The notes under the pieces: generated by a model
What the model was told of the DNA's origin: nothing
Databases searched by the model: none
What the model saw: only the letters and a program-made list of their open reading frames with translations
Virus record (IMG/VR): IMGVR_UViG_3300042731_009106
Coordinates: 64,001 to 128,000 of that record
Strand: one strand, 5' to 3'
DNA from: a virus
Length of the DNA stretch: 64,000 bases
Translations under genes and position numbers: made by a program
Shown here: positions 1,627-63,504 of the stretch, piece by piece
Position numbering within the stretch: position 1 is the stretch's first letter
Layout: every line of letters begins with the position of its first letter

Positions 1627-2720
1627 GCAAAACATTAGATCAAATTAATAAATTCCTTTCCGACAAAGATAATAAAAAATACCACTTCAATGATTTCAAT
1701 GAAGATGAATATAAAATATCAAGTGGTAGTTTAAATCTGGATTTAGCCTTGGGTGGTGGACTTCCAGCTGGAGCCCATAGATTTACAGGAATTAACGAAG
1801 GCGGCAAAACTAGCTGTGCATTGACTGTAGCCAAAAACTTTCAAAGTCATTTCGGCAAAGATGGCATGGTTGTGATAGTAAAATCAGAAGGAAGGTTAAG
1901 TCCTGAAATGCTAAAGAGAACAGGAGTAGATCTTGATCCAGAAAAGTTTTTTATTCTTGATTGCAATATTTTTGAAAAAGTTTTTGAGTTTATTAGAGAC
2001 TTGGTTTTTAATAACGAAGATAACAAAAAATATATGTTCATTATTGATAGTGTTGATGCTCTTTGCAGAATGAATGATATTGACAAACCATTTAGTGAAA
2101 GCGAACAAGTGGCTGGTGGAGCATTAGTCACATCTGTTTTTCTTAAAAAGATGGTTTTACCTATCACTAAAATGGGGCACATGATGATACTAACTTCTCA
2201 AGTTAGAGTAGAAGTTGCCGCAAATCCTTATGCAGCAAGAGGTGGTCCAAAGGTTAAGCAAGCTGGTGGTAATGCAATTAAGCATTATGCTAATTTCATT
2301 TTAGAGTTTGAAGAAAGGTATACTAATGACATTATGTGGGAAAATGCATCTGCCTCTAAGATCGAAGATAAAGGTAATCCCATAGGTCATTATTGCAAGA
2401 TTCGTTTTCGCAAAAGTGTCAACGAAAAGACTGGAGCTCAAGTTCGCTATCCTATTCGCTACGGTAGAACAGATGGTAATTCTGTATGGCTAGAGAAAGA
2501 AATTATAGACATGATGTATTTATGGGGTTATATCGAAAAGAAAGGTGCATGGATATCTTTCGATGAAGATATTCTAAAAGATTTATCTGATAAAAAAATT
2601 GAGTGTCCAGAAAAAATACAAGGTGATAATAAATTACTTGAATTAATAGAAACTAATGGAAGTTTAAAAGACTATTTTTACAATACTATACATGACATCT
2701 TCCAAAATGAAAAAGAATAA
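1623..2720 (+). CDS. recA: RecA/UvsX-like recombinase
   Basis: ISSGSLNLDLALGGGLP, P-loop GINEGGKT, IIDSVDAL, GGNAIKHYA. Confidence 0.93.
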   Translation: MSKTLDQINKFLSDKDNKKYHFNDFNEDEYKISSGSLNLDLALGGGLPAGAHRFTGINEGGKTSCALTVAKNFQSHFGKDGMVVIVKSEGRLSPEMLKRTGVDLDPEKFFILDCNIFEKVFEFIRDLVFNNEDNKKYMFIIDSVDALCRMNDIDKPFSESEQVAGGALVTSVFLKKMVLPITKMGHMMILTSQVRVEVAANPYAARGGPKVKQAGGNAIKHYANFILEFEERYTNDIMWENASASKIEDKGNPIGHYCKIRFRKSVNEKTGAQVRYPIRYGRTDGNSVWLEKEIIDMMYLWGYIEKKGAWISFDEDILKDLSDKKIECPEKIQGDNKLLELIETNGSLKDYFYNTIHDIFQNEKE

Positions 2721-3966
2721 AATCTTTATTTCGATAGCTAGTTATCGAGATCCCCAGCTCATACCAACTATAGAAAATTGTATAAAGAATGCTAAAAATC
2801 CTAAAAATTTAGTGTTTGGAATCTTAAGGCAATACAATAAAAAAGATGGCTTTGATGATCTTTCTGACTATAAGAGTAAAACAAACTTCAGGATTAAAGA
2901 AATGCTCTCTCACAAGAGCAAAGGGGTATGCCATTCCAGATACCAAATACAAACTATGTATGATGGAGAAGAATTTTATTTACAGTTAGACTCACATCAC
3001 AGATTCATTAAAGATTGGGATACTAAACTAAAACAAACATTATCTTCCCTTAAGAAGTCGGGCAGCAAAAAACCTATACTAACAGGTTACTTGCCTTCTT
3101 TCGATCCAGATGTAGAAGGAGAAGCTAGATTAAACGATGTATGGCGTCAATACATTGATCGCTTTCAACCCGAAGGTCCAATCTTTATTTTTCCCGAAAC
3201 TATACCTAATTGGCAAAGAAAAAAGCCTGAAAAAGCTAGGTTCCTTAGTGGTCATTTTATTTTTAGCTATGGAGACTTTGTGACTAATGTTCCATATGAT
3301 CCAAAACTTTATTTCCATGGAGAAGAAAGCTCTTTAGCTGTCAGGGCATATACTCATGGCTATGATTTGTATCATTTGCATAGACCTTGGGTTTGGCATC
3401 ATTATGGCAGAGATAATTATGCTAGACACTGGGATGATGAATCAGTTTGGGGCGACTTAAACAAACAAAGCTTTCTTCGCTATAAAACTTTACTTGGAAT
3501 GGATGGTATTCGCAGAAAGCATATACCAAAATACGGTCTGGGTAAAGTTAGGTCACTTAGTGATTATGAATCTTATGCTGGTATTAGATTTAAAGATCGT
3601 CAAATCCATCAAGCTGCATTCGACAGAACCCCACCCCCAGTTAAACTAAAAAAGGGTGAAAAAATAGAAGATAAATTTGTTTCTCAATTTAAGTATTGCA
3701 TAGATCTACATAAACCAAATTTCCCAGAAAATGATTATGATGTTTGGGCAATTGCATTCAAAGATAAGAATGGTAATGAAATGATTAGGTTGGATGCTGG
3801 GGAAGAAGAAATAGCCAGACTTCAAAACGAAAATCCTAAAGATGATTTTATAAGGCTATGGAGACAGTTTGAAACTTCAGAGCTTCCATCTAGTTGGTTG
3901 ATCTGGCCTCACAGTAAAAGTAAGGACTGGATGAATATTGTAGAAGGGACTGTGCCAGTATTATGA
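2692..3966 (+). CDS. GT60-like (Skp1-hydroxyproline/polypeptide) GlcNAc transferase with extra C-terminal domain
   Basis: IFISIASYRD, LQLDSHHRF, FHGEE-RAYTHGYDL motifs typical of the GlcNAc/GT60 family. Confidence 0.8.
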   Translation: MTSSKMKKNKIFISIASYRDPQLIPTIENCIKNAKNPKNLVFGILRQYNKKDGFDDLSDYKSKTNFRIKEMLSHKSKGVCHSRYQIQTMYDGEEFYLQLDSHHRFIKDWDTKLKQTLSSLKKSGSKKPILTGYLPSFDPDVEGEARLNDVWRQYIDRFQPEGPIFIFPETIPNWQRKKPEKARFLSGHFIFSYGDFVTNVPYDPKLYFHGEESSLAVRAYTHGYDLYHLHRPWVWHHYGRDNYARHWDDESVWGDLNKQSFLRYKTLLGMDGIRRKHIPKYGLGKVRSLSDYESYAGIRFKDRQIHQAAFDRTPPPVKLKKGEKIEDKFVSQFKYCIDLHKPNFPENDYDVWAIAFKDKNGNEMIRLDAGEEEIARLQNENPKDDFIRLWRQFETSELPSSWLIWPHSKSKDWMNIVEGTVPVL

Positions 3967-5225
3967 GCTCTATATATGTACAAATAGCTGCCTACAGAGA
4001 TCCTGATGTAGTTAATACATTAAAAGATATAGTTAAGCAGTCAAGCAAAAAACATAAAATTGTAATCAATATAATTGATCAATATTCTCCAGATGATAAT
4101 TTTTACGATATTGAAAAAACATTTAAACATTTAAAGTGCAATGCCTTTGCTAGCTTAAAATATAAAAAAATTCTTTATACAGAAACTAAAGGGGTTTGCT
4201 GGGTTAGGCATTTATTAAACGAGGATTATTCTGGGGAAGACTTCACCCTCCAATTAGACTCTCATCATAGGTTTGAAAAAAATTGGGATACGACTTTAAT
4301 ATCTATGCTGGATTCACTTTGTGATGCTGGTTACAAAAAACCTTTACTTACAACATACTGCCCCGGATATCTAACTAGCGACGAAACAAAATATCCATTT
4401 GCAACACAAATGGATTTTGACAGATTCACCCCAGAAGGCGCAGTATTTTTTAGCTCTGGGATCATCCCAAACTGGGAAAACAAAAAGCTTCCAGTACCAT
4501 CTAGATTCATTAGTGGTCATATGATTTTCGTGCAAGGATCTTTCTGCAAAGAAGTTCCATATGATCCTTATTATTTATTCCACGGAGAAGAAATTAATCT
4601 CACGGTACGAGCTTATACTCATGGTTATGATTTATTCCATCCACATAAGCCTGTAGTTTATCACGAATATTCTCGAAGTCATCGCCCTAAAAAGTGCTGG
4701 GATGACGACCCACAATGGGGTCTTAAAAATGATAAATCTCACTTACGTAACAGAAAATTCTTTCAAATGGATGGAGAGAAAAAAGATATAGACTTCGGAA
4801 AATATGATCTCGGAACAGTTAGAACGATAGAGCAGTACGAAGAATATAGCGGCGTTAGAATGAGAAGTCGCTCAGTACAACAATATACTATTGACTTGCA
4901 TCACGCACCTAACCCAGTTCATATGTCTGATGATGATTATGAATCTTCTTTTTTACCTATCTTTAAACACTGTATTGATTTGTCTTATGAGATCGTACCC
5001 TTAAATGATTATACTTTTTGGTGCGTAGCCTTCAAAGATAAAGACGGTAATGATATTTACAGGCAAGATGCTAACAAAGAAGAAATTCATAAAATGAAAA
5101 ATGACCCTGATGGTTATTGTAAATTATGGAGATCTTTTCCCTCTCCACAGAAACCTCATAGCTGGCTAGTATGGCCTCACAGCGAAAGCGAAGGTTGGCT
5201 TGAACCAATTACAGGCTACCTTTAA
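3963..5225 (+). CDS. GT60-like GlcNAc transferase, tandem paralog
   Basis: IYVQIAAYRD, LQLDSHHRF, FHGEE-RAYTHGYDL; shares C-terminal WxxAFKDKxGN/WLxWPHS domain with upstream gene. Confidence 0.8.
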   Translation: MSSIYVQIAAYRDPDVVNTLKDIVKQSSKKHKIVINIIDQYSPDDNFYDIEKTFKHLKCNAFASLKYKKILYTETKGVCWVRHLLNEDYSGEDFTLQLDSHHRFEKNWDTTLISMLDSLCDAGYKKPLLTTYCPGYLTSDETKYPFATQMDFDRFTPEGAVFFSSGIIPNWENKKLPVPSRFISGHMIFVQGSFCKEVPYDPYYLFHGEEINLTVRAYTHGYDLFHPHKPVVYHEYSRSHRPKKCWDDDPQWGLKNDKSHLRNRKFFQMDGEKKDIDFGKYDLGTVRTIEQYEEYSGVRMRSRSVQQYTIDLHHAPNPVHMSDDDYESSFLPIFKHCIDLSYEIVPLNDYTFWCVAFKDKDGNDIYRQDANKEEIHKMKNDPDGYCKLWRSFPSPQKPHSWLVWPHSESEGWLEPITGYL

Positions 5226-5875
5226 TGGTTTCTTTTAAACATAATTATATATTTGTACATATTCCAAAGTGCGCTGGTACTTCTATAGAGCAAGCTTTAA
5301 TTAAAAATGAAGATAAGCCCTTAGATTTCGACAAGTTATTGCTGCCAAACAATAAAGGCATACCTTCTTCGCATAAAGCTTTTAAAGAATACTATGAAGT
5401 CCCCCAACACTATACATTACAAACTATACATGATATACTTTGCGATCAAGGTCATTTAGATTTTTTTAATCAAGCTTTTATTTTTGCTGTTGTCAGAAAT
5501 CCATTAGATAGAATAAGATCCTCTTCCTCATATCTTACTAAAACTTTTAAAACACAATACAACATAGCCTCTTTACTTCATCACAAAAATATAGGAAACC
5601 ATAGGTTTGATTTAAATCAATATGACTGGTTGACAGTTAATAATAAATTTAAAGTTAATAAAATTATTCATTTTGAAAACTTGTCAGAAGGCCTTAACTT
5701 TGTTTCAAATAAACTATCTCTGTCTATAGATTTACCAAAACATAAATTTGAATCAAGTGGCGGCAACTTTTCGGTAAATGACTCTCCAAGAGTTCGGACT
5801 TTAGTGTATAATAAATACATCAAAGATTACAAAGAATTTAATTATGAACATCCAGTTAAAGTCTCAAGCCTTTAA
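5225..5875 (+). CDS. Sulfotransferase family 2 protein
   Basis: 5'-PSB HIPKCAGTS and 3'-PB VRNPLDR. Confidence 0.85.
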   Translation: MVSFKHNYIFVHIPKCAGTSIEQALIKNEDKPLDFDKLLLPNNKGIPSSHKAFKEYYEVPQHYTLQTIHDILCDQGHLDFFNQAFIFAVVRNPLDRIRSSSSYLTKTFKTQYNIASLLHHKNIGNHRFDLNQYDWLTVNNKFKVNKIIHFENLSEGLNFVSNKLSLSIDLPKHKFESSGGNFSVNDSPRVRTLVYNKYIKDYKEFNYEHPVKVSSL

Positions 5876-6665
5876 AAATATAAACAGCCCTCTTTCCTTA
5901 AATTTAAACGCAGAAAATCATTGGGCTCCACCTGAAAATAAAAATGATTACTGCATCTTAACTGATAACAATTGTTTTAATAATAATTTAATCAATAGTA
6001 TCTCTTGTAAAAAAATTGCATGGCTGGTTGAGCCCCCAATTATAAATGGAGAAAACTATGTTAAAATGAAAAACTTTCAGCATAAAAAATTTGATTATGT
6101 TTTCGGAAGCATCACACACCATCACTATACCAACATTCCTAATTATAAATATTTTGCTCATGGAGGAACAGTTCACAGGGAAGAAGATATAAAGATTTGG
6201 GAAAAAAGTAAATTGCTTAGCATGATTTTCTCAAAAAAGAAATGGAATAATGGGCATAGACATAGACACCACATCTACAATACCATAAAAAAGTCGCATG
6301 ACTTTGATGCGTTTGGTTGTGGAGTTGGTAATAGAATTAAATACAAGATAGGAGGACTCAAAGATTATATGTTTTCAATAGCTATGGAAAACTGTATGGA
6401 AGGAGATTATTTTACGGAGAAAATTATTGACTGTTTTTTAACTGGAACTATTCCCATTTATTATGGTACTCGAAATATAAAAAATTATTTTAACATGAAA
6501 GGCATTCTTTGGTTTAGGGGTACTGATGACATAAATAAAATTTTAAATAGAATCAACAAAGAATTATATCTAGAAAAATTAGATGCCATTAAAGAAAATT
6601 TTCAAATAGCACAAGATTACATACGGACAGGAGAAAGGCTTAAAAAATTAATTAATGATTTATGA
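5844..6665 (+). CDS. GT10-like alpha-1,3/4-fucosyltransferase
   Basis: YMFSIAMEN-DYFTEKI-GTIPIYYG fucosyltransferase motif. Confidence 0.8.
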   Translation: MNIQLKSQAFKNINSPLSLNLNAENHWAPPENKNDYCILTDNNCFNNNLINSISCKKIAWLVEPPIINGENYVKMKNFQHKKFDYVFGSITHHHYTNIPNYKYFAHGGTVHREEDIKIWEKSKLLSMIFSKKKWNNGHRHRHHIYNTIKKSHDFDAFGCGVGNRIKYKIGGLKDYMFSIAMENCMEGDYFTEKIIDCFLTGTIPIYYGTRNIKNYFNMKGILWFRGTDDINKILNRINKELYLEKLDAIKENFQIAQDYIRTGERLKKLINDL

Positions 6666-7645
6666 TTTACAATGCTTGTGTTCCTCAACTAAAAATAGCA
6701 GATATTTTTAGGTCAAATAATTTATTGGTGATCTGCTTTTACTGTGGTGAACCTAAAGATATATTAGTTAATAAAACATCAAGCTGCAAAAAAATTATAT
6801 GCCCAGAAGGTTTCAGTAGTTTATTGTTTTTTGACATAAAAGAATCCACTAAATATTATATATCACACAAAAATACTGAGTACTGCGTTGGCGCAAATGT
6901 CTACAAGGATCATAAAAGAAAATTCACCCTTTCAACAATGGTTAAAAATGAAGATGATTACATTATTCCTTGGATAAAATTTCACCAATCAATTGGCTTT
7001 GAACATTTTGTAATATATGATAATAGTCAGGTGTCGGACAAAACTTCTTGGACATCCTCAAGTGACAAAAGTGATTTAAAACTTGTTCTTAAAGATTATG
7101 TAGATAACGGTCTAGTTACTTTAATTAACTGGGATGTACCAAAAAGAATAAATGGCAGACTTTATGGTCAAGCTAGTCAACAAACTCATTCGTTGCATGC
7201 ATTTTCAAAATCAAATTACATTTGTTATATTGACATAGATGAATATATAAATTTAAAAAAAGACAAAAATATAAATGAATTTATACAATCTATCAATACA
7301 GACAAAAAAATTAATTGCTTTTGTTTTCGCAGCCGTTTATTCCATAACTCTAAAAATAAAAGTGAAGACCCTTCTGACTTCTTGCTTATTGATACGTGTG
7401 ACGCTGTACTCGATGGGGCTAGAAGAAAGTCCATCGTAAAAACTAAATCGATTAACACCTTTGCCATTCATTCCCCAACCTCTGCATCCACAAGGTATAT
7501 TATCCCAAAGGGCTTAGCCTACATTAATCACTATTTTTTTCTGAATAAAAATTATAGAGGGAGAGATTCTGCTAAATATGTAGACAAAAGCATTCTAAGA
7601 CATATTATAAATAATGAAAATATTAATAGTTGTACTGGCTTGTAA
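6662..7645 (+). CDS. GT92/GT2-like glycosyltransferase
   Basis: TMVKNEDDYIIPWIKFH-GFEHFVIYDNS, YIDIDEY. Confidence 0.75.
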   Translation: MIYNACVPQLKIADIFRSNNLLVICFYCGEPKDILVNKTSSCKKIICPEGFSSLLFFDIKESTKYYISHKNTEYCVGANVYKDHKRKFTLSTMVKNEDDYIIPWIKFHQSIGFEHFVIYDNSQVSDKTSWTSSSDKSDLKLVLKDYVDNGLVTLINWDVPKRINGRLYGQASQQTHSLHAFSKSNYICYIDIDEYINLKKDKNINEFIQSINTDKKINCFCFRSRLFHNSKNKSEDPSDFLLIDTCDAVLDGARRKSIVKTKSINTFAIHSPTSASTRYIIPKGLAYINHYFFLNKNYRGRDSAKYVDKSILRHIINNENINSCTGL

Positions 7646-8321
7646 ATCCTCACAAGATTACAGAGATCTTGATGACTGTGGTAGAAGCACTTGGGGGAAT
7701 ATCGCTAACTCCAACCCTAACATAGTTGATGTTCTTCATACTTATGCCGTTCCATCTCCATCCGCACGTGATCCTTTGGTTAGGCGTGAAGGTAACGACA
7801 TCATCGTAAACATAAAAGAAGAATATGACAACACTTCCAGAAAAAACATTGATACTTTAATTTACATTAACAAACATTACCCTGATATAGATTATGTTTA
7901 TAGGACTAATTTATCTTCATATATAAACATTGATAACTTAGTTAAATATTTATCAACTGCACCCAGAACAGGATTTTACTCTGGCCAAAGGCGAAGTGCT
8001 CCTTATCAAAATTTTAAATTCGCTTCTGGTAGTGGATTTACTATGTCTCGTGATGTTGTTGACTTAGTTGCTCAGAATAAAGATAATATTAACTTAAGAG
8101 CTCCAGATGATCTACCTTTAGGTAGGTTCCTGCACCAGTCTAACATTGAATTTACTCATTTAGATTGGCATAGGATGAATAACACATTCAGCAATACAGA
8201 CTTTAATAATTTTCCCAAAGATAGGCCTCAATACCGGTTAAGAACTTACCCTAAGTTTGGTGGAGACAGGAGAGAAGATGTCAAAAAAATGAAACACCTG
8301 CATAATATATTTTATGAATGA
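7614..8321 (+). CDS. GT31-like galactosyltransferase
   Basis: YRTNLSSYI, FASGSGFTMSRDVV, PDDLPLG. Confidence 0.6.
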   Translation: MKILIVVLACKSSQDYRDLDDCGRSTWGNIANSNPNIVDVLHTYAVPSPSARDPLVRREGNDIIVNIKEEYDNTSRKNIDTLIYINKHYPDIDYVYRTNLSSYINIDNLVKYLSTAPRTGFYSGQRRSAPYQNFKFASGSGFTMSRDVVDLVAQNKDNINLRAPDDLPLGRFLHQSNIEFTHLDWHRMNNTFSNTDFNNFPKDRPQYRLRTYPKFGGDRREDVKKMKHLHNIFYE

Positions 8322-9057
8322 TAATATTGTAATTACTGCTGCAAATTCACCATATTTTAATAGCTTAAAAACATTAATTGCAAGTCTTCACAGAACTTCA
8401 TACGAAGTAGTTGATAAAATTTATGTATTCGATCTTGGGCTTACCAAGAAACAAAGAGAAGCTATCTCTAAATGCTTAAAGACAGAAGTCGTTGACCTAC
8501 CAACTAATATAGATTCTGAACCAAAACAACATGTCTATAAACCGTTCTGTGTCCATTGGGGCACCAACTTGGCCAAGAATGTACTTTGGTTAGATGCTGG
8601 AGTTATGGCTCTTCAATCAATTCAAGAAATTTATAACATCATTGAATCCGAAGGTATATTTTTAGTTGGAGATAAACATTTAAATAAAAAATTCACTCAT
8701 GATAAATGCATTGAAATCATGAATGCGACCAAGCAAGAATTAAATGACAAACAACTTTCGTCAGGCATTCTGGGATTTAAATCGAATGGGAACTATCAAC
8801 AACTCATTAACGAAGCATTCCATTTCTCTACTATTAATGGATGTGTTTCCGGCAACCAACAAAGACACCGACATGATCAAAGCGTTTATTCCATCTTAGC
8901 TTCTAGGTACAACTGTAAACGTTATAACATTTTGCGTTATGGATACTTTACCAATCAAGATAGAAATTTATCAACCGCTAGACAAGCCGATGCAGTTATC
9001 TTTGTACATAGAGCTGGGCACAATGATTTTAAAGGTTTAAACAGAATCCCCTCATGA
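8314..9057 (+). CDS. GT-A fold glycosyltransferase (DUF1647/GT8-like)
   Basis: ITAAN-YF, VFDLGL, VLWLDAG, RHRHDQSVYSIL. Confidence 0.6.
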   Translation: MNDNIVITAANSPYFNSLKTLIASLHRTSYEVVDKIYVFDLGLTKKQREAISKCLKTEVVDLPTNIDSEPKQHVYKPFCVHWGTNLAKNVLWLDAGVMALQSIQEIYNIIESEGIFLVGDKHLNKKFTHDKCIEIMNATKQELNDKQLSSGILGFKSNGNYQQLINEAFHFSTINGCVSGNQQRHRHDQSVYSILASRYNCKRYNILRYGYFTNQDRNLSTARQADAVIFVHRAGHNDFKGLNRIPS

Positions 9058-17746: not shown

Positions 17747-17747
17747 C

Positions 17748-17776
17748 TTGACTTATTCCTATTATAATGCTATCAT
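17748..17776 (+). promoter_or_regulatory. Sigma70-like promoter
   Basis: TTGACT-17-TATCAT with TGn extension; ATG 7 nt downstream. Confidence 0.75.
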
Positions 17777-50109: not shown

Positions 50110-50114
50110 TTACT

Positions 50115-54208: not shown

Positions 54209-54284
54209 GCCACCTTAGCACAGTTGGTAGTGCGACGCACTTGTAATGCGTAGGTCGTCAGTTCGATCCTGACAGGTGGCTCCA
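54209..54284 (+). tRNA. trnT: tRNA-Thr(UGU)
   Basis: Acceptor GCCACCT/AGGTGGC, anticodon arm ACGCA-CTTGTAA-TGCGT, GTTCGATC T-loop, encoded CCA; TTGAAT-17-TATTAT upstream (54166..54194). Confidence 0.97.
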
Positions 54285-56240: not shown

Positions 56241-56248
56241 ATTAATAT

Positions 56249-56254
56249 ATACAC
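56249..56254 (-). promoter_or_regulatory. GTGTAW phage motif
   Basis: TACAC at 56250..56254, 9 nt from ATG 56240. Confidence 0.65.
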
Positions 56255-56295
56255 TTTGTCTTGACTTTTGTTTGTATTTATGAGATTATATAATC

Positions 56296-56469
56296 ATGAA
56301 CACTAGTTTTATTACTTTAACAGATCTTTGGCATAATGGAAAATATGTCGAAGTTGGAGATATTATTAGAGCTGAACAATGGAACGCTGGTAAAGTTGCA
56401 GAATTCTGCTTATACTTTGTGAAATATGTAGGCTTAAAAGAATTTGAGGTTTTATATAAGTTTTTATGA
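56296..56469 (+). CDS. Small hypothetical protein (57 aa)
   Basis: MNTSFITLTDLWHNGKY...EVLYKFL; ATGA overlap with 56466; more plausible than the minus-strand ORF 56286..56477. Confidence 0.6.
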   Translation: MNTSFITLTDLWHNGKYVEVGDIIRAEQWNAGKVAEFCLYFVKYVGLKEFEVLYKFL

Positions 56470-56837
56470 ATGATCAATATTTACTCGATTGGGAAACTTT
56501 TGAATTTTATACTCAAGAACTCCATAAGCAAGAGGAGTATAACATAAATCTCATGCGAACAATTCAAACTTTTATAGAAAATAATCCTTCTCCTAAGCGC
56601 TACCAACGAAAACGCTTATTATCTAGAGCTGATCAATGCTATACAACATTAAGTCATTTATATAAAAAGCAAATTGACTCGGTTGATTCATTAATTGAGC
56701 ATCATAAAGATGACTCTACTGTTCCTGATGAATTTAAAATTGAGCCACATACTTTGTATGCTTTACGCAATTTAACATTTACTCTCATTGAGCAAATCAA
56801 AAAAGAAAACAAACAAATCAAAAAACTACTATCTTAA
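56466..56837 (+). CDS. Hypothetical helical protein
   Basis: 123 aa ORF. Confidence 0.7.
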   Translation: MNDQYLLDWETFEFYTQELHKQEEYNINLMRTIQTFIENNPSPKRYQRKRLLSRADQCYTTLSHLYKKQIDSVDSLIEHHKDDSTVPDEFKIEPHTLYALRNLTFTLIEQIKKENKQIKKLLS

Positions 56838-56839
56838 TT

Positions 56840-57091
56840 ATGCCATATATACCATCATCAGAAAAAAACAAAGTTGATCAAGATAATTTAATTCAAAATG
56901 CAGGTCAATTTAATTATGCATTAAATCAAGTTATCTCGATTTACATTGAACAAAATGAATTGAATTATCAAACTTGCAACGATATCATAGGAGCAATGGA
57001 ATGCGCCAAAATGGAATTATATCGTAGATTGGTTGCTCCTTATGAAGATAAAAAAATATTACAAAACGGAGACGTAAAGCCTTACAAATAA
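56840..57091 (+). CDS. Conserved phage protein (DUF6899-like)
   Basis: MPYI, [33 protein letters not shown]. Confidence 0.7.
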   Translation: [83 protein letters not shown]

Positions 57092-57115
57092 AAAAGCCCC
57101 CAATTTCGAGGGCTA
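57091..57115 (-). terminator. Intrinsic terminator between convergent genes
   Basis: Minus strand AGCCCTC-GAAATT-GGGGGCT followed by T5. Confidence 0.7.
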
Positions 57116-57139
57116 GTTTATTTTAGCAAGGTATGGTTA

Positions 57140-57511
57140 CTAGCAATTCATTGTAACTTCGCCATTATCGTCATCCCAACTTCCATTAAGAAACTTTTCA
57201 GCAGTTTTGTATTCATCTGAATCTGAGTTTAAGCTATCTTTGTAATCTTGTATTTGACCTCTAATCCCGGCAGAATAAGGAGTTGGGCCTAAGTTATCAA
57301 AACAAGACCCTTTATCTAACTTTTCTACAGGAACAATTAGCGGGCAATTTGGGTCATTTAAAAAGTTTTCTAAATGTCTATGAAATGCATTAGCTGCATT
57401 AAAACCTTCAGCTTCTAAAGCTGCTCTGGTTGCACTACTAATTTGAGGCGGACATGAGGCAAAATCGTCCTTATACCTTTCACGTTGAGCATTGTTTTGT
57501 ATCGTTGTCAT
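57140..57511 (-). CDS. Orphan hypothetical protein
   Basis: 123 aa with own GTGTA motif and terminator. Confidence 0.7.
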   Translation of the reverse strand: MTTIQNNAQRERYKDDFASCPPQISSATRAALEAEGFNAANAFHRHLENFLNDPNCPLIVPVEKLDKGSCFDNLGPTPYSAGIRGQIQDYKDSLNSDSDEYKTAEKFLNGSWDDDNGEVTMNC

Positions 57512-57519
57512 ATTTATTT

Positions 57520-57525
57520 ATACAC
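57520..57525 (-). promoter_or_regulatory. GTGTAW phage motif
   Basis: TACAC at 57521..57525, 9 nt from ATG 57511. Confidence 0.65.
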
Positions 57526-57539
57526 AAGTTTATTATATT

Positions 57540-57545
57540 GTGTAA
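57540..57545 (+). promoter_or_regulatory. GTGTAW phage motif
   Basis: GTGTA ends 10 nt before ATG 57555; back-to-back with the minus copy. Confidence 0.65.
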
Positions 57546-57554
57546 TTCATCTTC

Positions 57555-57749
57555 ATGAATGAAAAACAATTACAACTTGCATTAATTAAAAAAGATAGGC
57601 AAATTTCCGACTTATATGCATTAATTGACACCCTGCAAACCAACTTGAGAACGGCTACCAGCTATTTGTCTGAAAAAGATAAATCTGAAGTAGTTAATGT
57701 TCAAAGTTATAAATGGTGCATGAATTGGCGTCAAGGTGACGAAATTTAG
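57555..57749 (+). CDS. Small coiled-coil protein
   Basis: 64 aa ORF. Confidence 0.65.
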   Translation: MNEKQLQLALIKKDRQISDLYALIDTLQTNLRTATSYLSEKDKSEVVNVQSYKWCMNWRQGDEI

Positions 57750-57751
57750 TC

Positions 57752-57780
57752 TTGAATAATTCATTTTTTTAAGTTATAAT
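57752..57780 (+). promoter_or_regulatory. Sigma70-like promoter
   Basis: TTGAAT-17-TATAAT; ATG 57788. Confidence 0.7.
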
Positions 57781-57787
57781 ATAGGTT

Positions 57788-58333
57788 ATGTACAATTACC
57801 TAATTGACCATAATAAAGAGTTCATTTATTACGTCACCCCAAAATGCGCTTCAAGGACATTTTTTGACATCCTTAATTTTAAAGGTGGTGAAGAAAGACC
57901 TCTTAGCCTCAAACATGAAGAGTATTTTTCTTGGACTTTTGTGCGCAATCCTTATGCTAGAGTTGTATCTGCATATCAAAATAAAGTTGTCGATAAATTT
58001 CAAAGTGGTTTAGATGAATTTAGGCACTTAACTTCTTTTGAAGATTTTGTTCAAGCGATAAGTAAAATTGATATAAATAAAGCTGATCGACACATTCGAC
58101 CAATGAACACTTTTTTTCCAGAGTCCATTAGTTATGTAGGTAAACTAGAAAACTTAAATTCTGACTTTGATTTTATTTGTGATAAAATTAATCTACCAAA
58201 AGTAAACTTACCTCATTTAAATAAAAGTTTAAGCAAAGACTACACAGAGTATTACAATACAGAAACTCAATCAATAGTCAACAAAATATATAGCAAAGAT
58301 TTAGATATTTTTAAATATTCTTACGGAGATTAG
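57788..58333 (+). CDS. Sulfotransferase family 2 protein
   Basis: VTPKCASRT, FVRNPYARVVSAY, DRHIRP. Confidence 0.85.
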   Translation: MYNYLIDHNKEFIYYVTPKCASRTFFDILNFKGGEERPLSLKHEEYFSWTFVRNPYARVVSAYQNKVVDKFQSGLDEFRHLTSFEDFVQAISKIDINKADRHIRPMNTFFPESISYVGKLENLNSDFDFICDKINLPKVNLPHLNKSLSKDYTEYYNTETQSIVNKIYSKDLDIFKYSYGD

Positions 58334-58338
58334 ATTTT

Positions 58339-59094
58339 ATGGGTAAAGGTATCTCAATAGCTTTCATTACTTCAGTATTTGGATACAATGGCAATGACCC
58401 TAAAAAATTTGAAAAAATTAAAGGGGCTCAATATTTTTTATTTACAGATAGGCCTGAATCTAGCTTCGATACTGATTGGGAAATCATTAATGTTGCAGGT
58501 ATCCTAGATATTGCTAATTTAGATTGCAATGTAAAAAAATCTAGATATTGCAAATTTATGGGCTGGAGTGTGCTAGAGGCAATGGGTGGCGTTTTTGATT
58601 ATGTTTATTATTGCGATGTTCATTTAAGCCCAAATCATCATTTAAATTGGCCAGAGCTTTCCAAATACATATCTCATCATGATTTTCCCTTTACTCAAGA
58701 TGTCCATATTGATCCCGAAATAAGAAAAAAAGGAATCAAACAAGAACTTAAAGCAATAATCAAACATGAACGAGATACTGTAGAGCAAGTTGACAAAACA
58801 ACACGATATCTTGAAAAATGGTTTCCAGATGTAGACTTAGATTCTCCTAAGTTTTTTCAAAATACTGTTTTTGGCTACGAATATCAATCCAAATTAGTAA
58901 GGCTTATTTTTGCAACATTTTGGGGACATTACTCAAGAAATGACATTACCTTCAGAGATCAACCATTATGGAATGCTATTTTAAAGAAATATAAACTAAT
59001 ACCCTTTCACAAAGTCAAACTCCTAAATCGTTTTTTTGTTAAAACAGGCCTTTATGGTAAACATGGCTTAAGAGGTTTTGACGATGAAGATTAG
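58339..59094 (+). CDS. DUF616-like putative glycosyltransferase
   Basis: YFLFTD, SRYCKF, RDQPLWN. Confidence 0.55.
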   Translation: MGKGISIAFITSVFGYNGNDPKKFEKIKGAQYFLFTDRPESSFDTDWEIINVAGILDIANLDCNVKKSRYCKFMGWSVLEAMGGVFDYVYYCDVHLSPNHHLNWPELSKYISHHDFPFTQDVHIDPEIRKKGIKQELKAIIKHERDTVEQVDKTTRYLEKWFPDVDLDSPKFFQNTVFGYEYQSKLVRLIFATFWGHYSRNDITFRDQPLWNAILKKYKLIPFHKVKLLNRFFVKTGLYGKHGLRGFDDED

Positions 59095-59113
59095 TAATTT
59101 AACATAAAAAGTA

Positions 59114-60019
59114 ATGTACATAATATTAGGAAAAAACGGATATATAGCAGAAGCTATAACAAAAGAATTAAAGTCACGCGATTTACCTCATATCGCGCTT
59201 AGTCGCACAGATGTAGATTATACAAATATGAAAATTTTTGATAATTGGCTATCAAATACTGTATACAAAAAAACAGTGAAACATCATAATGTTTCTATCA
59301 TTAATTGCGCGGGATATATCGGTAAACCAAATGTGGATGCTTGCGAGCTAAATAAAGCAGATACAGTTGAAGGTAATGTAATATTCCCTGCAATGCTTTC
59401 GCAACTTTGTGCAAATAAAGGATATTTATATACTCATATTTCTTCGGGATGTATTTATGGCGGGTATGAAAAAGATTTCACAGAAGAAGATGCGCCTAAT
59501 TTTGACTTTCAAAATGGTAGTTTTTATAGTGGGACAAAAGCTCTTGCAGAAAAAATTGTAAAACAAAATGTACCAAAGAGTTATATTTTTAGATTACGCA
59601 TACCATTTGATGAATTTGAGTCTCCACGTAATTACTTGACTAAATTATTATCTTATGACATGCTTCTAGATGCGCGTAACTCTCTTTCTCATCGTGCAGA
59701 TTTCGCAAAATACACAATTGACTTAATCGAGAAAAAAGTTCCATTTGGGATTTACAATGTGACAAATAAAGGTAGTGTTACTACCAAAGAAGTTGTAGAA
59801 CTCATGAAATGCCATTTGCGCGACAACTTAGCTTTCAAAATGCCAGATAAAGAGTTTAAATTCTTCAGTAAGTTAGATAATTTCATGCAAGAGGTTACTG
59901 CTCCTCGCTCGAATTGTGTTCTTGACACATCAAAAATTGAAAAATATATTCCCATCAGAACTGCACAAGATGCACTCAAAGATGCTCTATCTAAATATGT
60001 AATTCAAAAAGATTTATGA
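59114..60019 (+). CDS. NDP-4-keto-6-deoxysugar 3,5-epimerase/4-reductase (RmlD-like, NRS/ER type)
   Basis: LGKNGYIA, CAGYIGKPNVDACE, SSGCIY, GSFYSGTK, LRIPF-PRNYLTKL. Confidence 0.85.
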   Translation: MYIILGKNGYIAEAITKELKSRDLPHIALSRTDVDYTNMKIFDNWLSNTVYKKTVKHHNVSIINCAGYIGKPNVDACELNKADTVEGNVIFPAMLSQLCANKGYLYTHISSGCIYGGYEKDFTEEDAPNFDFQNGSFYSGTKALAEKIVKQNVPKSYIFRLRIPFDEFESPRNYLTKLLSYDMLLDARNSLSHRADFAKYTIDLIEKKVPFGIYNVTNKGSVTTKEVVELMKCHLRDNLAFKMPDKEFKFFSKLDNFMQEVTAPRSNCVLDTSKIEKYIPIRTAQDALKDALSKYVIQKDL

Positions 60020-60801
60020 ATCCTTTGGATTTGCATAATCAAAATACAGGTAAAACTATCAACGAGCGGATACAATGGTCTATGGCTCATGCTAGACTAC
60101 CTTTAAAAAAGTACTGCACAGATAAAATCAAATGCAAGCAATATATTAAAGATAAATTAGGAGAAGGTTTTACGGCTAAACTTTTAGCTTCTGCAGATAA
60201 TGTTGATACTCTTCGGTCAATTATATCAAAATCCGAAAATCATCCTAATAATTTTATATTAAAAGCCAATAATGATTCAGGCGGAACTACTTTCATTAAA
60301 GATAAAAAAATCTCAAAAGATCAACAATCATTAATTGAGAAATATAAAAATAACATATATGAGGGGTTTTTTCAAGGTGAGTGGTTTTATTCAGGCATAG
60401 AATATAAATGTTTTTCTGAAGAATTATTGGGTAATAATTTAACTGACTACAAATTTCATTGCGCTGGAGGTTCACCAAGGTTTGCAAATATTGTCAAAGA
60501 TAGAAATATTAACTCTATAAATCACATTCATGTTGATATGGAAGGTCAAGCTTTAAACTTTGAATTAGAATCTTCAATCCCACTTTCCAAAACATTTATA
60601 AAGCCATCTAACTGGGAGTTAATGAAATTAGTTGCCAAGGTATTATGTCAAGATTTTGATTACGTTAGGGTTGATTTATTTAATACAGATTTACATGATT
60701 GTTCTGACAAATCAATTTTTGTATCCGAATTAACCTTTGCTCCAATGAGAGGACATCATTGCGGTTCTGGTCAAACAGAGGCTGGCAGATTAATTTCTTG
60801 A
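60016..60801 (+). CDS. TupA-like ATP-grasp protein
   Basis: CTDKI, FILKANNDSG, DYKFHC-G, FDYVRVDLF, SELTFAP. Confidence 0.85.
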   Translation: MNPLDLHNQNTGKTINERIQWSMAHARLPLKKYCTDKIKCKQYIKDKLGEGFTAKLLASADNVDTLRSIISKSENHPNNFILKANNDSGGTTFIKDKKISKDQQSLIEKYKNNIYEGFFQGEWFYSGIEYKCFSEELLGNNLTDYKFHCAGGSPRFANIVKDRNINSINHIHVDMEGQALNFELESSIPLSKTFIKPSNWELMKLVAKVLCQDFDYVRVDLFNTDLHDCSDKSIFVSELTFAPMRGHHCGSGQTEAGRLIS

Positions 60802-60944
60802 TGTGCAATATATATATTTTTTGCGAAGGAGGCTTGGGTAACAGAATTAATACCCTAATTAATGGCTTATTTTTATCTACAGAACTTAATAGAAAACTTA
60901 TTTTAATTTGGCCTCAAACTAATTGCAAAACTTTTAAAGTGTAA
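60801..60944 (+). pseudogene. N-terminal fragment of O-fucosyltransferase/GT23-like gene
   Basis: EGGLGNRINTLINGL-NRKLILIW, then stops after 47 codons at GTG-TAA. Confidence 0.6.
60939..60944 (+). promoter_or_regulatory. GTGTAW phage motif
   Basis: GTGTA ends 9 nt before GTG 60953. Confidence 0.6.
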
Positions 60945-60952
60945 TATAATGC

Positions 60953-61492
60953 GTGGAACTTTGCAATAATACACCAGCAATCAAATGTTTTTTAAGGAGA
61001 GAATTCGTCTCCAACTCTGAAGATATACCCGATCATTTAAATTGTGTAATTTTCGGCGTTCATACAATCAAAAATCAAGCTATGACATTTGTAGCTATGA
61101 TTGAAAATGGCGCAGTATATACCAAGCTACCCTTACATGCCTTTTGTTGGCTCAAGGAAGCTCCACAAAGAGATTTGTCATTCTTAATGACTTATGACTC
61201 ATTTAGCTACTCAAACAGCGTTATTGAATACGATTATCTCAAATATATGAATTGTAAGTTTTTTGATGAAAATAAAGAATTTCATCATGGTCAATATATG
61301 TTTACCCTAGAGCCTTATGGTTCAGATCGTGCAGAAGACCCAAAGTTTTATAAACCATTTCATTTTATAAAATTAAACGAGGGCAATTTTGCCGCACAAC
61401 CAACAAATAAGATCATATGGGATGACCATATAGTAAATGATAGTGTAAAATTTATACCTAAACCCAACACGGAAATATATAACGTAGAATAG
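60953..61492 (+). CDS. Conserved phage hypothetical protein
   Basis: CFLRREF, ENGAVY-KLPLHAF, GNFAAQPTNKIIW. Confidence 0.7.
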   Translation: MELCNNTPAIKCFLRREFVSNSEDIPDHLNCVIFGVHTIKNQAMTFVAMIENGAVYTKLPLHAFCWLKEAPQRDLSFLMTYDSFSYSNSVIEYDYLKYMNCKFFDENKEFHHGQYMFTLEPYGSDRAEDPKFYKPFHFIKLNEGNFAAQPTNKIIWDDHIVNDSVKFIPKPNTEIYNVE

Positions 61493-61509
61493 AAACTTAC
61501 AAATATTAA

Positions 61510-62103
61510 ATGAAAATTGCAACAATAGGCAGTTGTCAAGCAATGGCGCTAAATTGGTATGTACATAGATTGCTGCCAGATTCTGAATGTAAATGGGTAT
61601 CACCTGAATTATTTCAATTTTGGGGAAATAAGCCCCAATACACTTCAACAAAAAGTATGTGGCAATCTCAAGCAAATCATAATATTTTTAATACGGATGA
61701 AGGTATTGATTATATAAAATCAGCAGATTATATTGTTTATCAAAAAATAAAACCTTCAACATCTGCTTCATTCAACTATGAGAAAATTGAATCCTATACA
61801 AAACCTTCAGCTCAAGTAGTATCGTTAACATATATTCATTACGATAAAAGTGCAAGTGATCCACTACAAGGAATGGTCGAACGAGAAGAACTTCTTTCAC
61901 CTGATATTAGAATCAGTAAATTAATTTCAGAACACCCTGATCGTGAAAATTTTAAATTTAATGCGAAAGGCACACATTGCAATTCAGTTGTATTTCTTGA
62001 GATATTGAGGGAAATATGTGAAAATTTTAATTGGGCTTTTTTCAACGACGAGCAATATATTAAAATTCAGGAAAAATATTACCCTTTTGGGGAAAACCTA
62101 TGA
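61510..62103 (+). CDS. WcbI-like protein
   Basis: IATIGSCQAMAL-WY; paralog of 55680. Confidence 0.55.
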   Translation: MKIATIGSCQAMALNWYVHRLLPDSECKWVSPELFQFWGNKPQYTSTKSMWQSQANHNIFNTDEGIDYIKSADYIVYQKIKPSTSASFNYEKIESYTKPSAQVVSLTYIHYDKSASDPLQGMVEREELLSPDIRISKLISEHPDRENFKFNAKGTHCNSVVFLEILREICENFNWAFFNDEQYIKIQEKYYPFGENL

Positions 62104-62115
62104 CCAACACAAATC

Positions 62116-62910
62116 ATGCAAATATTCTACGACCACGTTATTTCTAAACAAGCTGACACAGACTTTAATTATACTCTTATTTCTGCTTGGGTTGATAGTG
62201 GTGAAGAGGATGAAGCTCTAGCTACGGGTTGGTTGCCTACATATTTCTATACCGATGATTGTGAATTTGCGAAAGAGAGTGAGTCAAATAAGCGTCAAAT
62301 TTGGTGTCAATTAAGAAGCACAAGAATCGAGTGTGAAAAGTTTCGTGCAAAAAGTAAACATTTAAAAGCATTAAAATTGCAAAACTTTAAGTATCAAATA
62401 ATAAAACAAAAAGACATTTATGGAGATTTGAATGTCTTATCTACCCTTTACCAAATATACAACAAATATGTAACTTACAAAAATTACAAAGACATACTAG
62501 ATAAAGATGGTTTTATTAAACATATAATTGATGATAGTAGTCATTTTATTTTATTTATGATTGACGATAGAATTGTAGCTTGTACCGCAATGCAACAATT
62601 TGGCAATAGTTTTGTTTCGGGCTTGTTTTTTTGGGATTACGCAAATAAAGAGCTATCATTAGGCAATTTATCTAATCATCTTGAAGTTGAACTTTCAAGA
62701 GAGTATGGTTTCAAATACCTATATATCGGTGTGTATAGCGAGATACCTTCCCAATACAAATCTTACATCAAAGGAGTACAGGTTTGGACAGGAAGAAAAT
62801 GGATGTCAAATAAACGACAATTAATAAATATTGCACAGAATGATTCAAATAGTAATACATTAGAAGATTTTGTAGATTATAATAAATTTCAAAAACTATT
62901 AGAATTTTAA
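62116..62910 (+). CDS. Bpt/ATE1-like aminoacyl-tRNA-protein transferase
   Basis: LATGW, RSTRI, LYQIYNKY, FFWDY-LSLG, KYLYIG-Y-SQYK-W follow the ATE_N/ATE_C layout. Confidence 0.75.
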   Translation: MQIFYDHVISKQADTDFNYTLISAWVDSGEEDEALATGWLPTYFYTDDCEFAKESESNKRQIWCQLRSTRIECEKFRAKSKHLKALKLQNFKYQIIKQKDIYGDLNVLSTLYQIYNKYVTYKNYKDILDKDGFIKHIIDDSSHFILFMIDDRIVACTAMQQFGNSFVSGLFFWDYANKELSLGNLSNHLEVELSREYGFKYLYIGVYSEIPSQYKSYIKGVQVWTGRKWMSNKRQLINIAQNDSNSNTLEDFVDYNKFQKLLEF

Positions 62911-63504
62911 GTGATTTTATCTCATAAATATAATTTTATTTTTATCGCAATCCCCAAGACTGGAACAACAAGTGTGCAAAGAAGGTTTGAATTAATGAAC
63001 CTAGAAGGTACAAATATATGTAATACTAGAGAGCCTAACTTAACACAACCAAAACCACTTTTCACCAAACATATACCTGCTATAGAACTTAAACAAAAAT
63101 GTGAAAAATTTGACCAATATTTTAAGTTTTCATTTGTGAGAAATCCATATGCTAGAGCCGTATCTTGGGTTTTTTATCATTTAAGAAATGAAAATTATGA
63201 TTTAGAAAATTATTCTTTCAGCGAACTAATTTTAAGATGTCCACATTGGATATGGTATCCTCAACATAGGTGGATATATTCAAATGGTAATAATTTAATG
63301 AATTTTGTAGGAAAAATAGAAAGCCTTCAACAAGATTTCAACATCGTCTGCGACAAAATCGGAATCCCACAACAAAAACTGCCACACATCAATAAAAGTA
63401 ACCACAAACATTATACGGAATACTATGATAATGAAACTCGAAAAATGGTGTCAGAAAGGTATGCGGAGGATATTGAGTTTTTTGGGTATAAATTTGGCGA
63501 ATAG
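62911..63504 (+). CDS. Sulfotransferase family 2 protein
   Basis: IAIPKTGTTS, FVRNPYAR. Confidence 0.88.
   Translation: MILSHKYNFIFIAIPKTGTTSVQRRFELMNLEGTNICNTREPNLTQPKPLFTKHIPAIELKQKCEKFDQYFKFSFVRNPYARAVSWVFYHLRNENYDLENYSFSELILRCPHWIWYPQHRWIYSNGNNLMNFVGKIESLQQDFNIVCDKIGIPQQKLPHINKSNHKHYTEYYDNETRKMVSERYAEDIEFFGYKFGE

Follow-up and report, generated by a model that had tools for sequence, protein, structure and literature searches.

Glycan gene blocks and islands

The window, i.e., the whole stretch of 64,000 nucleotides analysed here (positions 64,001-128,000 of the 139,273-bp IMG/VR virus record IMGVR_UViG_3300042731_009106), carries three blocks of glycosyltransferase (GT) and sulfotransferase genes on a bacteriophage contig, and these blocks are treated here as part of a candidate system for glycosylation of the phage's own tail. 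Open reading frames (ORFs) are designated by w and their start in window coordinates (e.g., w5225), and coordinates marked "genome" refer to the whole 139,273-bp contig. The blocks consist of open, tightly packed ORFs, with ten in block 1 (2692-12346), 17 in block 2 (37666-51502), and nine in block 3 (55680-63504). A preceding reading of the window from its letters (hereafter the sequence-only reading) had described about 35 genes in these three blocks, which was confirmed apart from the third block, for which eight genes had been counted. Matches to Pfam and NCBIfam hidden Markov models (HMMs) were counted as firm only at or above the curated cut-off. The block ORFs are given below with window coordinates and strand.

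Block 1
2692-3966 (+): GT60 paralogue A, 424 amino acids (aa), candidate polypeptide O-N-acetylhexosamine (HexNAc) transferase; PF11397, E 4.8e-63
3963-5225 (+): GT60 paralogue B, 420 aa; PF11397, E 5.9e-68
5225-5875 (+): sulfotransferase (Sulfotransfer_2); PF03567, E 3.4e-10; PK..GTS and RNPxxRxxS retained
5844-6665 (+): GT10-like (alpha-1,3-fucosyltransferase family); PF00852, E 4.7e-11, 43 bits against a cut-off of 23.9
6662-7645 (+): GT92 glycosyltransferase; PF01697, E 4.2e-22
7614-8321 (+): GT31 (Galactosyl_T); PF01762, E 1.5e-10
8314-9057 (+): possible GT-A glycosyltransferase, weak; PF11051 (Mannosyl_trans3), E 0.0085, under cut-off
9054-9767 (+): GT25 glycosyltransferase; PF01755, E 1e-14
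9754-10680 (+): HtrL-like ORF, weak; PF09612, E 0.004, under cut-off
10517-12346 (+): HtrL-domain and GT2-like protein, right flank of the variable cassette; PF09612, E 1.7e-8; weak PF00535 (sub-cut-off)

Block 2
37666-39042 (+): DUF5672 protein, 458 aa, opens the block; PF18922, E 5.5e-12
39033-39749 (+): possible divergent sulfotransferase; no Pfam match, E 0.003 against a custom sulfotransferase HMM
39724-40500 (+): probable GT-A (GT2-like), lead only; no Pfam match, ESM-Atlas feature score 0.98, template modelling (TM) score 0.68 to GT2 clusters
40493-41065 (+): sulfotransferase (Sulfotransfer_4); PF17784, E 3.2e-8
41062-41691 (+): island ORF; no Pfam match, no homologue in relatives G1 and G2
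41688-42650 (+): possible GT-B (GT1/GT4-type), weak; PF00534, E 2.5e-5, 24.3 bits against a cut-off of 26.4
42643-43557 (+): island ORF; no Pfam match
43547-44926 (+): two-domain glycosyltransferase (GT32-type DXD and GT25); PF04488 (Gly_transf_sug), E 1.4e-13; PF01755, E 1.3e-5
44869-45843 (+): possible GT4 N-terminal-type, weak; PF13439, E 0.0044, under cut-off
45809-46543 (-): island ORF; no Pfam match
46533-47111 (-): sulfotransferase (Sulfotransfer_2); PF03567, E 3.7e-20; motifs retained
47108-47824 (-): GT32/Caps_synth glycosyltransferase; PF05704, E 9.3e-20
47796-48362 (-): sulfotransferase (Sulfotransfer_2); PF03567, E 1.8e-11
48363-49121 (-): probable GT8/GT77-like GT-A, lead only; no Pfam match, ESM-Atlas 0.96 to GT8/Nucleotid_trans clusters
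49102-50109 (-): STELLO-like ORF, weak; PF03385, E 6.2e-5, 22.4 bits against a cut-off of 27.8
50115-50897 (-): island ORF; no Pfam match
50894-51502 (-): sulfotransferase (Sulfotransfer_2); PF03567, E 2.9e-11

Block 3
55680-56240 (-): WcbI-like ORF, borderline; PF18588, E 8.4e-7, 29.3 bits against a cut-off of 29.2; paralogue of w61510
57788-58333 (+): sulfotransferase (Sulfotransfer_2); PF03567, E 2e-20
58339-59094 (+): island ORF; no Pfam match, 44% identical to one ORF of relative G4
59114-60019 (+): RmlD-like NAD(P)-dependent sugar-nucleotide reductase/epimerase; PF04321 (RmlD_sub_bind), E 2.5e-22; TIGR01214, E 6e-16, sub-cut-off
60016-60801 (+): TupA-like ATP-grasp enzyme; PF14305, E 2.8e-15
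60953-61492 (+): ORF without Pfam match; 97% conserved in G4, where it adjoins an rfbB homologue
61510-62103 (+): paralogue of the WcbI-like w55680 (BLASTP cluster)
62116-62910 (+): ATE_C/arginyltransferase-like ORF (GNAT-fold, aminoacyl-transferase-like) inside the glycan block; PF04377, E 1.9e-9
62911-63504 (+): sulfotransferase (Sulfotransfer_2); PF03567, E 1.5e-17

Among the families that had been named from the letters, two GT60 genes, GT10, GT92, GT31, GT25, GT32, HtrL, TupA-like, and RmlD-like genes were recovered with Pfam and WcbI was borderline; GT2, GT4, STELLO, GT8, and GT77 were weak or leads only in the window. The PF00852 alignment of the GT10-like w5844 covers only profile positions 3-101 of 182, and NCBIfam arginyltransferase models scored w62116 far under their cut-offs. 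Ten block ORFs had no Pfam match, and ESM Atlas gave leads to GT-A folds for two of them (GT8/GT77-like and GT2-like).

Three blocks understate the system, as at least two more glycan islands lie outside the window:

Genome 17267-19186 and 21260-22351: two conserved PHROG-2170 glycosyltransferases
Genome 24389-31559: CAP59-like gene, FkbM methyltransferase, two GT2, GT-D, GT8, GT8/34-like
Genome 38013-59715: gmd, fcl, GT77 and DUF7796, GT25-FkbM fusion, two Methyltransf_24, rfbB, cytidylyl/adenylyl-transferase, GT32, two Sulfotransfer_2

The contig has five glycan islands, and its glycan regions total 65.3 kb (47% of its length), in agreement with the proposal of a locus well beyond the size of the phage glycosylation loci described so far. 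The firm tally for the contig was about 20 glycosyltransferases, nine sulfotransferases, four methyltransferase domains, and five sugar-nucleotide enzymes; about 20 further island ORFs had no family assignment.

GT60 pair

The two GT60 proteins scored 214 and 230 bits against PF11397 (cut-off 21 bits), with alignments spanning profile positions of about 2-350. Since a search of the GT60 sequence against PDB chains returned no match, a fold search was required. For this, the AlphaFold2 model of paralogue B (predicted local distance difference test 92.7) was searched against the PDB with Foldseek, and all of the top ~38 among the matches listed were polypeptide N-acetylgalactosamine (GalNAc) transferases (GalNAc-T1/2/4/7/10/12, PGANT9, and TgGalNAc-T3; E ~6e-10, TM 0.41-0.53). 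A DSHHRF motif was invariant in 26 phage and bacterial GT60 homologues. Characterised GT60 enzymes form N-acetylglucosamine (GlcNAc)-alpha-O-Thr on Trypanosoma cruzi mucins (PMC9472816), and by analogy with these, together with the modelled fold, the GT60 pair is likely the initiating enzyme of the pathway.

The genomic surroundings of GT60 were inspected in bacteria and in other viruses. A single-sequence scan of bacterial genomes with GT60 gave nothing, and an alignment-based scan recovered 182 bacterial homologues with 34-47% identity (Verrucomicrobiota, Gemmatimonadota, Bacteroidota, Planctomycetota, and Proteobacteria). A Thr/Pro-rich open frame lay within 8 kb of GT60 at 17 of the 80 loci examined, compared to two of 73 control loci. 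With strict gene calling at the same loci, four immediate Thr-rich neighbours and about eight within two genes were retained, including those in low-GC Saprospiraceae, Jiulongibacter, and Planctomycetaceae. Another, non-related viral contig (L011/L012) has two GT60 genes interspersed among four Thr-rich ORFs. Based in part on this genomic association of GT60 with Thr-rich ORFs, the phage GT60 enzymes probably act on the threonine-rich stalks described below.

Threonine-rich stalks and tail module

The sequence-only reading had placed the glycan on virion proteins or on DNA. Ser/Thr/Pro-rich candidate acceptors were sought in the rest of the genome, and four tail-module proteins with Thr-rich, TQTPT-type stalks were found outside the window (measured stalks 110-230 aa, 33-46% Thr):

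Genome 3-680: stalk ORF cut by the contig end, starts in the repeat
Genome 2448-4721: stalk ORF, tail-tube paralogue; stalk at residues 414-628 (46% Thr, 22% Gln, 10% Pro)
Genome 4723-6279: stalk ORF; stalk at residues 99-327 (45% Thr), followed by a Calx-beta domain
Genome 9895-12312: stalk ORF; stalk at residues 617-804 (33-35% Thr)

None of the large tail-module ORFs received a function from PHROGs. For the ORF at genome 745-2376, no Pfam domain but more than 3,800 metagenomic homologues were found, including in Tara data; a homologue of this tail-tube-like protein with 86% identity lies on a 203-kb contig. Its AlphaFold model (predicted TM score 0.74) was matched by Foldseek to the fused tail tubes of T5 (pb6), DT57C, P74-26, and SH-Ab15497 (E 5e-9 to 3e-4, probability 1.0). 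Residues 31-368 of the stalk ORF at genome 2448-4721 are a paralogue of this putative tail tube (28% identity, E 8e-31), and the domain after its stalk shares 39% identity with the Calx-beta domain encoded at genome 4723-6279. Taken together, the tail-tube paralogy, the stalk, and the Calx-beta-like domain suggest that at least one stalk projects an Ig-like domain from a tail-tube-like subunit.

A third tail-tube paralogue, w24278-25612 (+, 444 aa; 35% identical to the ORF at genome 745-2376, E 7e-66), is located in the replication/Clp module, distant from the tail genes, and is kept in relatives (40-57%).

The sole tRNA of the window is the following:

54209-54284 (+): tRNA-Thr(UGU), found by ARAGORN; Rfam 69 bits

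The codons read by this tRNA (ACA and ACG) account for 58% of the Thr codons of the stalks versus 43% elsewhere, a modest shift, and the tRNA possibly aids translation of the stalks.

Sulfotransferases and sugar donors

The window was said to hold eight sulfotransferase-like genes. Seven of them are firm by Pfam, i.e., six Sulfotransfer_2 (E 2e-20 to 3e-10) and one Sulfotransfer_4 (3e-8), and the eighth (w39033) reached only E 0.003 against the custom HMM. The whole contig carries eight Sulfotransfer_2 genes (35-70 bits against a cut-off of 22 bits), bringing the contig's sulfotransferases to nine firm and three weak candidates. Across the eight Sulfotransfer_2 paralogues, the 5'-phosphosulfate loop IPKTGGTS and the 3'-phosphate motif RNPxxRxxS are conserved, with P, R, N, and P invariant; the loop is degenerate in one copy of the eight, w57788. 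One sulfotransferase sequence searched against PDB chains gave no match. From their families and motifs, it is quite probable that these enzymes act on carbohydrate.

Synthesis of the sulfate donor 3'-phosphoadenosine-5'-phosphosulfate (PAPS) was also sought in the rest of the genome; no adenosine-5'-phosphosulfate (APS) kinase was found in the contig, and one is present in each of the relatives G002 and G007. PAPS is assumed to be supplied by the host. The search for GDP-fucose genes located gmd and fcl at genome 38013-39990, outside the window. As the top matches, both aligned over their full length and stayed under the equivalog cut-offs (gmd: TIGR01472, E 1.6e-95, 320 bits against 415; fcl: NF047922, E 1.2e-119, 399 bits against 500); rfbB exceeds its equivalog cut-off. 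With gmd and fcl outside the window and the GT10-like gene inside, fucose is a probable component of the glycan.

In relative G002 (IMGVR_UViG_3300025809_002164), the equivalent of block 2 has eight to nine sulfotransferases alternating with ORFs of 230-290 aa, and an ORF with an APS-kinase domain (23770-24021). The regions concerned are 8-24 kb and 116-146 kb of that record, which is also longer by an extra 34 kb whose ORFs of 2,984 and 2,116 aa are unmatched in this contig.

Distribution in relatives and cassette turnover

More than 588 IMG/VR loci encode a DnaE 63-84% identical to that of the contig, on contigs reaching 211 kb. Sulfotransfer_2 genes were detected in 22 of 36 relatives' records and in nine of the ten near-complete ones (1-11 copies), and the tandem GT60 pair was present in all of the records G000-G005. 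Stalk ORFs numbered four to six each in G0, G1, and G2, compared to 0, 0, 1, and 1 in four near-complete relatives without GT60.

Turnover was assessed against G1, G2, G4, and G5, whose DnaE is 73-83% identical to that of this contig and whose backbone is syntenic with it at 45-96% protein identity. The conserved glycan core comprises the GT60 pair (paralogue A is 67-70% identical to the copies in these relatives), the HtrL-GT (w10517, 46-80% identical in relatives), the two PHROG-2170 glycosyltransferases, the CAP59-like gene, a GT2, and the GT77 gene; some of the four, but not all, also retain gmd and fcl. The same blocks as a whole were not retained in these relatives; nearly all cassette genes are replaced. 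No homologue in G1, G2, G4, or G5 was found for the block-1 cassette (w5225-9767), including the GT10-like w5844, or for nearly all of block 2, except for sulfotransferase paralogues (24-41% identity). Much of the islands beyond the window was likewise unmatched, with several island-A genes kept in G5 at 50-73%. Block 3 is a mosaic with respect to G4, in which the RmlD-like gene is 88%, w60953 97%, and rfbB 93% identical, the last being relocated. Altogether, the variable part totals 47 kb, i.e., 34% of the contig.

Fixed flanks with swapped contents resemble O-antigen and capsule loci. The wholesale swapping of cassettes at fixed backbone sites suggests that the glycan structure probably differs from strain to strain and is subject to diversifying selection, which might concern adsorption, shielding, or evasion. 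Contigs ~95-97% identical to this one, from marine runs of other studies, span backbone together with w5612-7019 and w7601-9566; because these near-identical contigs from independent metagenomes cover the block-1 cassette, it is not an assembly chimera.

Soluble pathway and candidate acceptors

Hydrophobicity was determined with a Kyte-Doolittle scan of 19 residues at a threshold of 1.6. Among the glycosyltransferase and sulfotransferase ORFs, only w41688 reached the threshold (1.63), which bears out the proposal of soluble enzymes. No ORF with more than four hydrophobic segments was present in the contig, G1, or G2. The sole ORF of the window with several such segments (four) is w16751-17746 (+, 331 aa), which belongs to the replication module, is retained in relatives at 62-71%, and is unlike a flippase. 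The proposed absence of a membrane-bound pathway likewise held, as HMMs for Bac_transf (PF02397, polyprenyl-phosphate transferase), WecA/MraY-type Glycos_transf_4 (PF00953), Wzx Polysacc_synt (PF01943), GtrA (PF04138), and Wzy_C (PF04932) gave nothing in this contig and two relatives (G000-G002), with 8-13 of 14 control genomes scoring.

We regard a cytoplasmic, mucin-type, fucosylated, and sulfated O-glycosylation of the phage's own tail stalks as moderately probable. During infection, the two soluble GT60 enzymes would move a first HexNAc from a UDP-sugar onto threonines of the stalks of the ORFs at genome 3-680, 2448-4721, 4723-6279, and 9895-12312; by analogy with the protist enzymes, this first sugar would be alpha-GlcNAc. 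Soluble GT-A and GT-B enzymes of the five islands (GT31, GT92, GT25, GT32, GT2, GT8, GT77, GT10, and others) would then lengthen the chains, using host UDP-sugars, phage-made GDP-L-fucose (gmd, fcl), and dTDP-6-deoxyhexose (rfbB and RmlD-like enzymes) as donors. Methyltransferases and at least nine PAPS-dependent carbohydrate sulfotransferases, with PAPS from the host, would complete the chains, so that the assembled tail would bear a sulfated, fucosylated, mucin-like coat. We judge it about as likely as not that these stalk glycans are the common target of most island enzymes.

Several observations weigh against stalk glycosylation. The co-occurrence of GT60 and stalks within the clade is essentially one phylogenetic contrast. 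Many of the Thr-rich neighbours of GT60 in high-GC bacteria disappear under strict gene calling, and the raw signal of 17 of 80 loci is therefore partly inflated by high-GC frame artefacts. As head and packaging genes are absent from the contig, the stalk proteins are assigned to the virion from the tail-tube fold and the order of genes, and Thr/Pro tracts can be simple linkers. Furthermore, relative G022 has six to seven sulfotransferases but lacks both GT60 and Ser/Thr stalks; in this clade, sulfated products hence need not depend on such stalks, and other acceptors are possible. Lastly, GT25, Caps_synth, WcbI, HtrL, TupA-like ATP-grasp, and the glycerol-phosphate/heptose nucleotidyltransferase (cytidylyl/adenylyl-transferase) are typical of lipopolysaccharide (LPS), capsule, and teichoic-type polymers.

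These last two observations, together with a cassette hypervariability like that of O-antigen and capsule loci, would fit a remodelling of the host envelope, in which the enzymes rebuild LPS, capsule, or exopolymer with the lipid carrier, flippase, and exporters of the host, and the stalks are linkers or modified by GT60 only. Such remodelling could serve to block superinfection, alter aggregation, or resist grazing. In the three genomes, however, there is no initiating polyprenyl-phosphate transferase, Wzx, Wzy, GtrA, or multi-pass membrane protein, and the glycosyltransferases and sulfotransferases are soluble throughout. Conservation among the glycan genes is moreover highest for the GT60 pair, whose nearest folds are protein O-glycosyltransferases, and to our knowledge Sulfotransfer_2 enzymes acting on lipid-linked bacterial polymers are rare. 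We therefore consider envelope remodelling unlikely.

Alternatively, GT60 might place a short glycan on the stalks while most island enzymes act on further proteins of the phage or its host, or produce a sulfated oligosaccharide that is free or secreted and has no relation to the tail stalks. The number of firm glycosyltransferases and sulfotransferases exceeds the needs of a single O-glycan, the islands are spread over five loci, and sulfotransferases occur in relatives without stalks. Against this, the fibril glycans of giant viruses likewise need large gene sets (PMC10117803), no second obvious acceptor class was found in the contig, and the islands are without export functions. Such a division among acceptors appears distinctly unlikely.

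The virion-protein half of the acceptor proposal was thus narrowed to the candidate stalks on tail-module proteins, and its DNA half found no support. Sugars on modified bases of the phage genome have a precedent in the glucosyl-hydroxymethylcytosine of T4, and the contig has an extensive nucleotide metabolism (ribonucleotide reductase, dUTPase, DnaE). For that purpose, however, one or two transferases suffice rather than dozens, and neither sulfotransferases and methyltransferases nor fucose synthesis are needed; the fold of GT60 corresponds to that of enzymes modifying peptides, and no base-hydroxymethylase was noticed in a search that was not exhaustive. DNA hypermodification was accordingly rejected as very improbable.

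Phage identity and assembly state of the contig

The contig (32.7% GC, labelled "linear", CheckV completeness 98%) originates from a wetland metagenome, and parts of its sequence occur in marine metagenomes. It has 183 ORFs at a coding density of 96%, with genes in long co-directional arrays. Genes in the middle of the window encode DnaB, a DnaG-type primase, exonucleases, a DnaE-type PolIII alpha subunit whose identity to cultured phages does not exceed 33%, a Clp-type ATPase, and a UvsX/RecA-like protein; beyond the window lie both ribonucleotide reductase subunits, dUTPase, and a sigma factor. Further features are:

Window 21916-24309: ClpA/C-like ATPase; phrog_4871, E 6e-220
Window 25675-26038 (+): tmRNA, just 3' of the ATPase gene; Rfam RF00023, 133 bits, full length; missed by ARAGORN
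Window 27619-28731 (+) and genome 128378-129385: endonuclease-like paralogue pair (phrog_8420)

From its replication genes, sigma factor, tmRNA, and the modelled T5-like tail-tube fold, the contig is assigned to a bacteriophage. A mis-binned bacterial capsule or O-antigen locus, or a fragment of a eukaryotic virus, was also considered, since many of the families (GT60, GT10, GT92, GT31, and GT77) are typical of eukaryotes and HMMs for terminase (Terminase_6N, PF03237) and HK97-type capsid (PF05065) had no match in this contig or two relatives (G000-G002). Both were rejected as extremely improbable: DnaE PolIII-alpha, DnaB, DnaG-type primase, sigma factor, tmRNA, UvsX, and ribonucleotide reductase are present, the T5-like tail-tube fold comes with paralogues, coding density and gene arrays are as given above, hundreds of viral contigs are syntenic, and there is no flippase or polymerase.

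No cultured relative was found, as neither megablast of 20 kb of the window nor tblastn of the tail-tube protein matched cultured phages. The terminase of a more distant 211-kb relative had no tblastn homologue in the contig, and the head and packaging genes either lie beyond the contig or have diverged too far for detection. The left end of the contig lies inside the 5'-open ORF at genome 3-680, which begins in a Thr-rich repeat, and the contig of one relative stops at the homologous point; this probably reflects an assembly break in repeat DNA. Because the contig begins inside a stalk ORF, the CheckV completeness is probably too high.

A Shine-Dalgarno (SD)-like core (GGAG/GAGG/AGGA, 4-20 nt 5' of the start) precedes 9% of genes (17 observed, nine expected from shuffles), and regions upstream of starts are A/T-rich, which indicates SD-independent translation initiation. 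As a guess, the scarce SD motifs and 33% GC fit a host of Bacteroidota type.

Comparison with known systems

The closest parallels to the proposed initiation step are the protist polypeptide alpha-GlcNAc-transferases of CAZy family GT60 (T. cruzi TcOGNT1/2 and Dictyostelium), which share PF11397, the GT-A fold, and a DxH-type motif, and whose Thr-rich, mucin-like acceptors (T. cruzi mucins, PMC9472816) parallel the proposed phage acceptors. In contrast to them, the phage enzymes lack a membrane anchor and would operate in the cytoplasm of a bacterium instead of the Golgi; they bear an extra C-terminal beta-rich domain, and even with bacterial homologues they share only 34-47% identity. Among solved structures, those closest in fold to the phage GT60 model are the animal and apicomplexan polypeptide GalNAc-transferases of GT27, the initiators of mucin-type O-glycosylation. 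GT27 enzymes carry a DSH metal motif, as does the phage GT60, yet they form a different CAZy family with 12-17% identity and TM scores of only 0.41-0.53, and no ricin-type lectin domain was identified in the phage GT60.

Virions of the mycobacteriophages Che8, Corndog, and Myrna are glycosylated by phage glycosyltransferases (Freeman et al. 2023, as cited in PMC12582341 and PMC11256854). In these systems, structural proteins of the phage itself are modified in the cytoplasm by soluble glycosyltransferases that the phage encodes, as proposed here. The mycobacteriophage systems comprise about two to four glycosyltransferases and no sulfotransferases, GT60, or long mucin-like stalks, whereas the present contig has the far larger enzyme set tallied above.

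Giant viruses (Megavirinae fibrils and chloroviruses) glycosylate their virions autonomously (PMC10117803, PMC9614988). They have in common with the present system virus-encoded sugar-nucleotide synthesis, soluble glycosyltransferases, decoration of the virion surface, and clade-specific gene clusters; they differ in their eukaryotic hosts and Mb-scale genomes, while here the host is bacterial and a much greater part of the genome is given to glycan genes. We know of no report of virus-encoded sulfation for giant viruses. Serotype conversion by temperate phages (GtrABC) employs membrane GtrA and GtrB and a polytopic GtrC on a lipid-linked sugar; phage-borne glycosyltransferases are shared with the present case, but GtrA, GtrB, and a polytopic GtrC are absent here.

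Self-glycosylating viruses are known among giant viruses and a few mycobacteriophages, with the phage machinery being small and without sulfation, and GT60, the mucin-type initiating enzyme, has otherwise been characterised in protists only. If the proposed pathway is true, mucin-type O-glycosylation and glycan sulfation would take place, directed by a virus, in the cytoplasm of bacteria, glyco-engineering would gain a large set of soluble and probably easily expressed glycosyltransferases and sulfotransferases, and adsorption of marine phages may involve phage-borne glycans that diversify like O-antigens. With the >588 polymerase loci in IMG/VR and >3,800 tail-tube homologues, the family is common and could be of ecological importance. 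More speculatively, and on balance doubtfully, this marine phage clade might make a sulfated, fucose-containing, mucin- or fucoidan-like coat on its tail stalks, the first virus-encoded sulfated glycan, which is redrawn between close relatives by cassette swaps and functions in host finding, either as bait for the glycan-harvesting surface proteins of polysaccharide-degrading marine bacteria, reversing the polarity of phage lectin and host glycan, or as a strain-specific shield.

Literature searches turned up neither GT60 nor sulfotransferase arrays in phages. Compared to the systems above, the contig pairs glycan enzymes with candidate mucin-like acceptors on the tail, and what is new is its scale, the combination of sulfotransferase arrays and a fucose pathway, a tail-tube paralogue as putative stalk carrier, and the wholesale turnover of cassettes.

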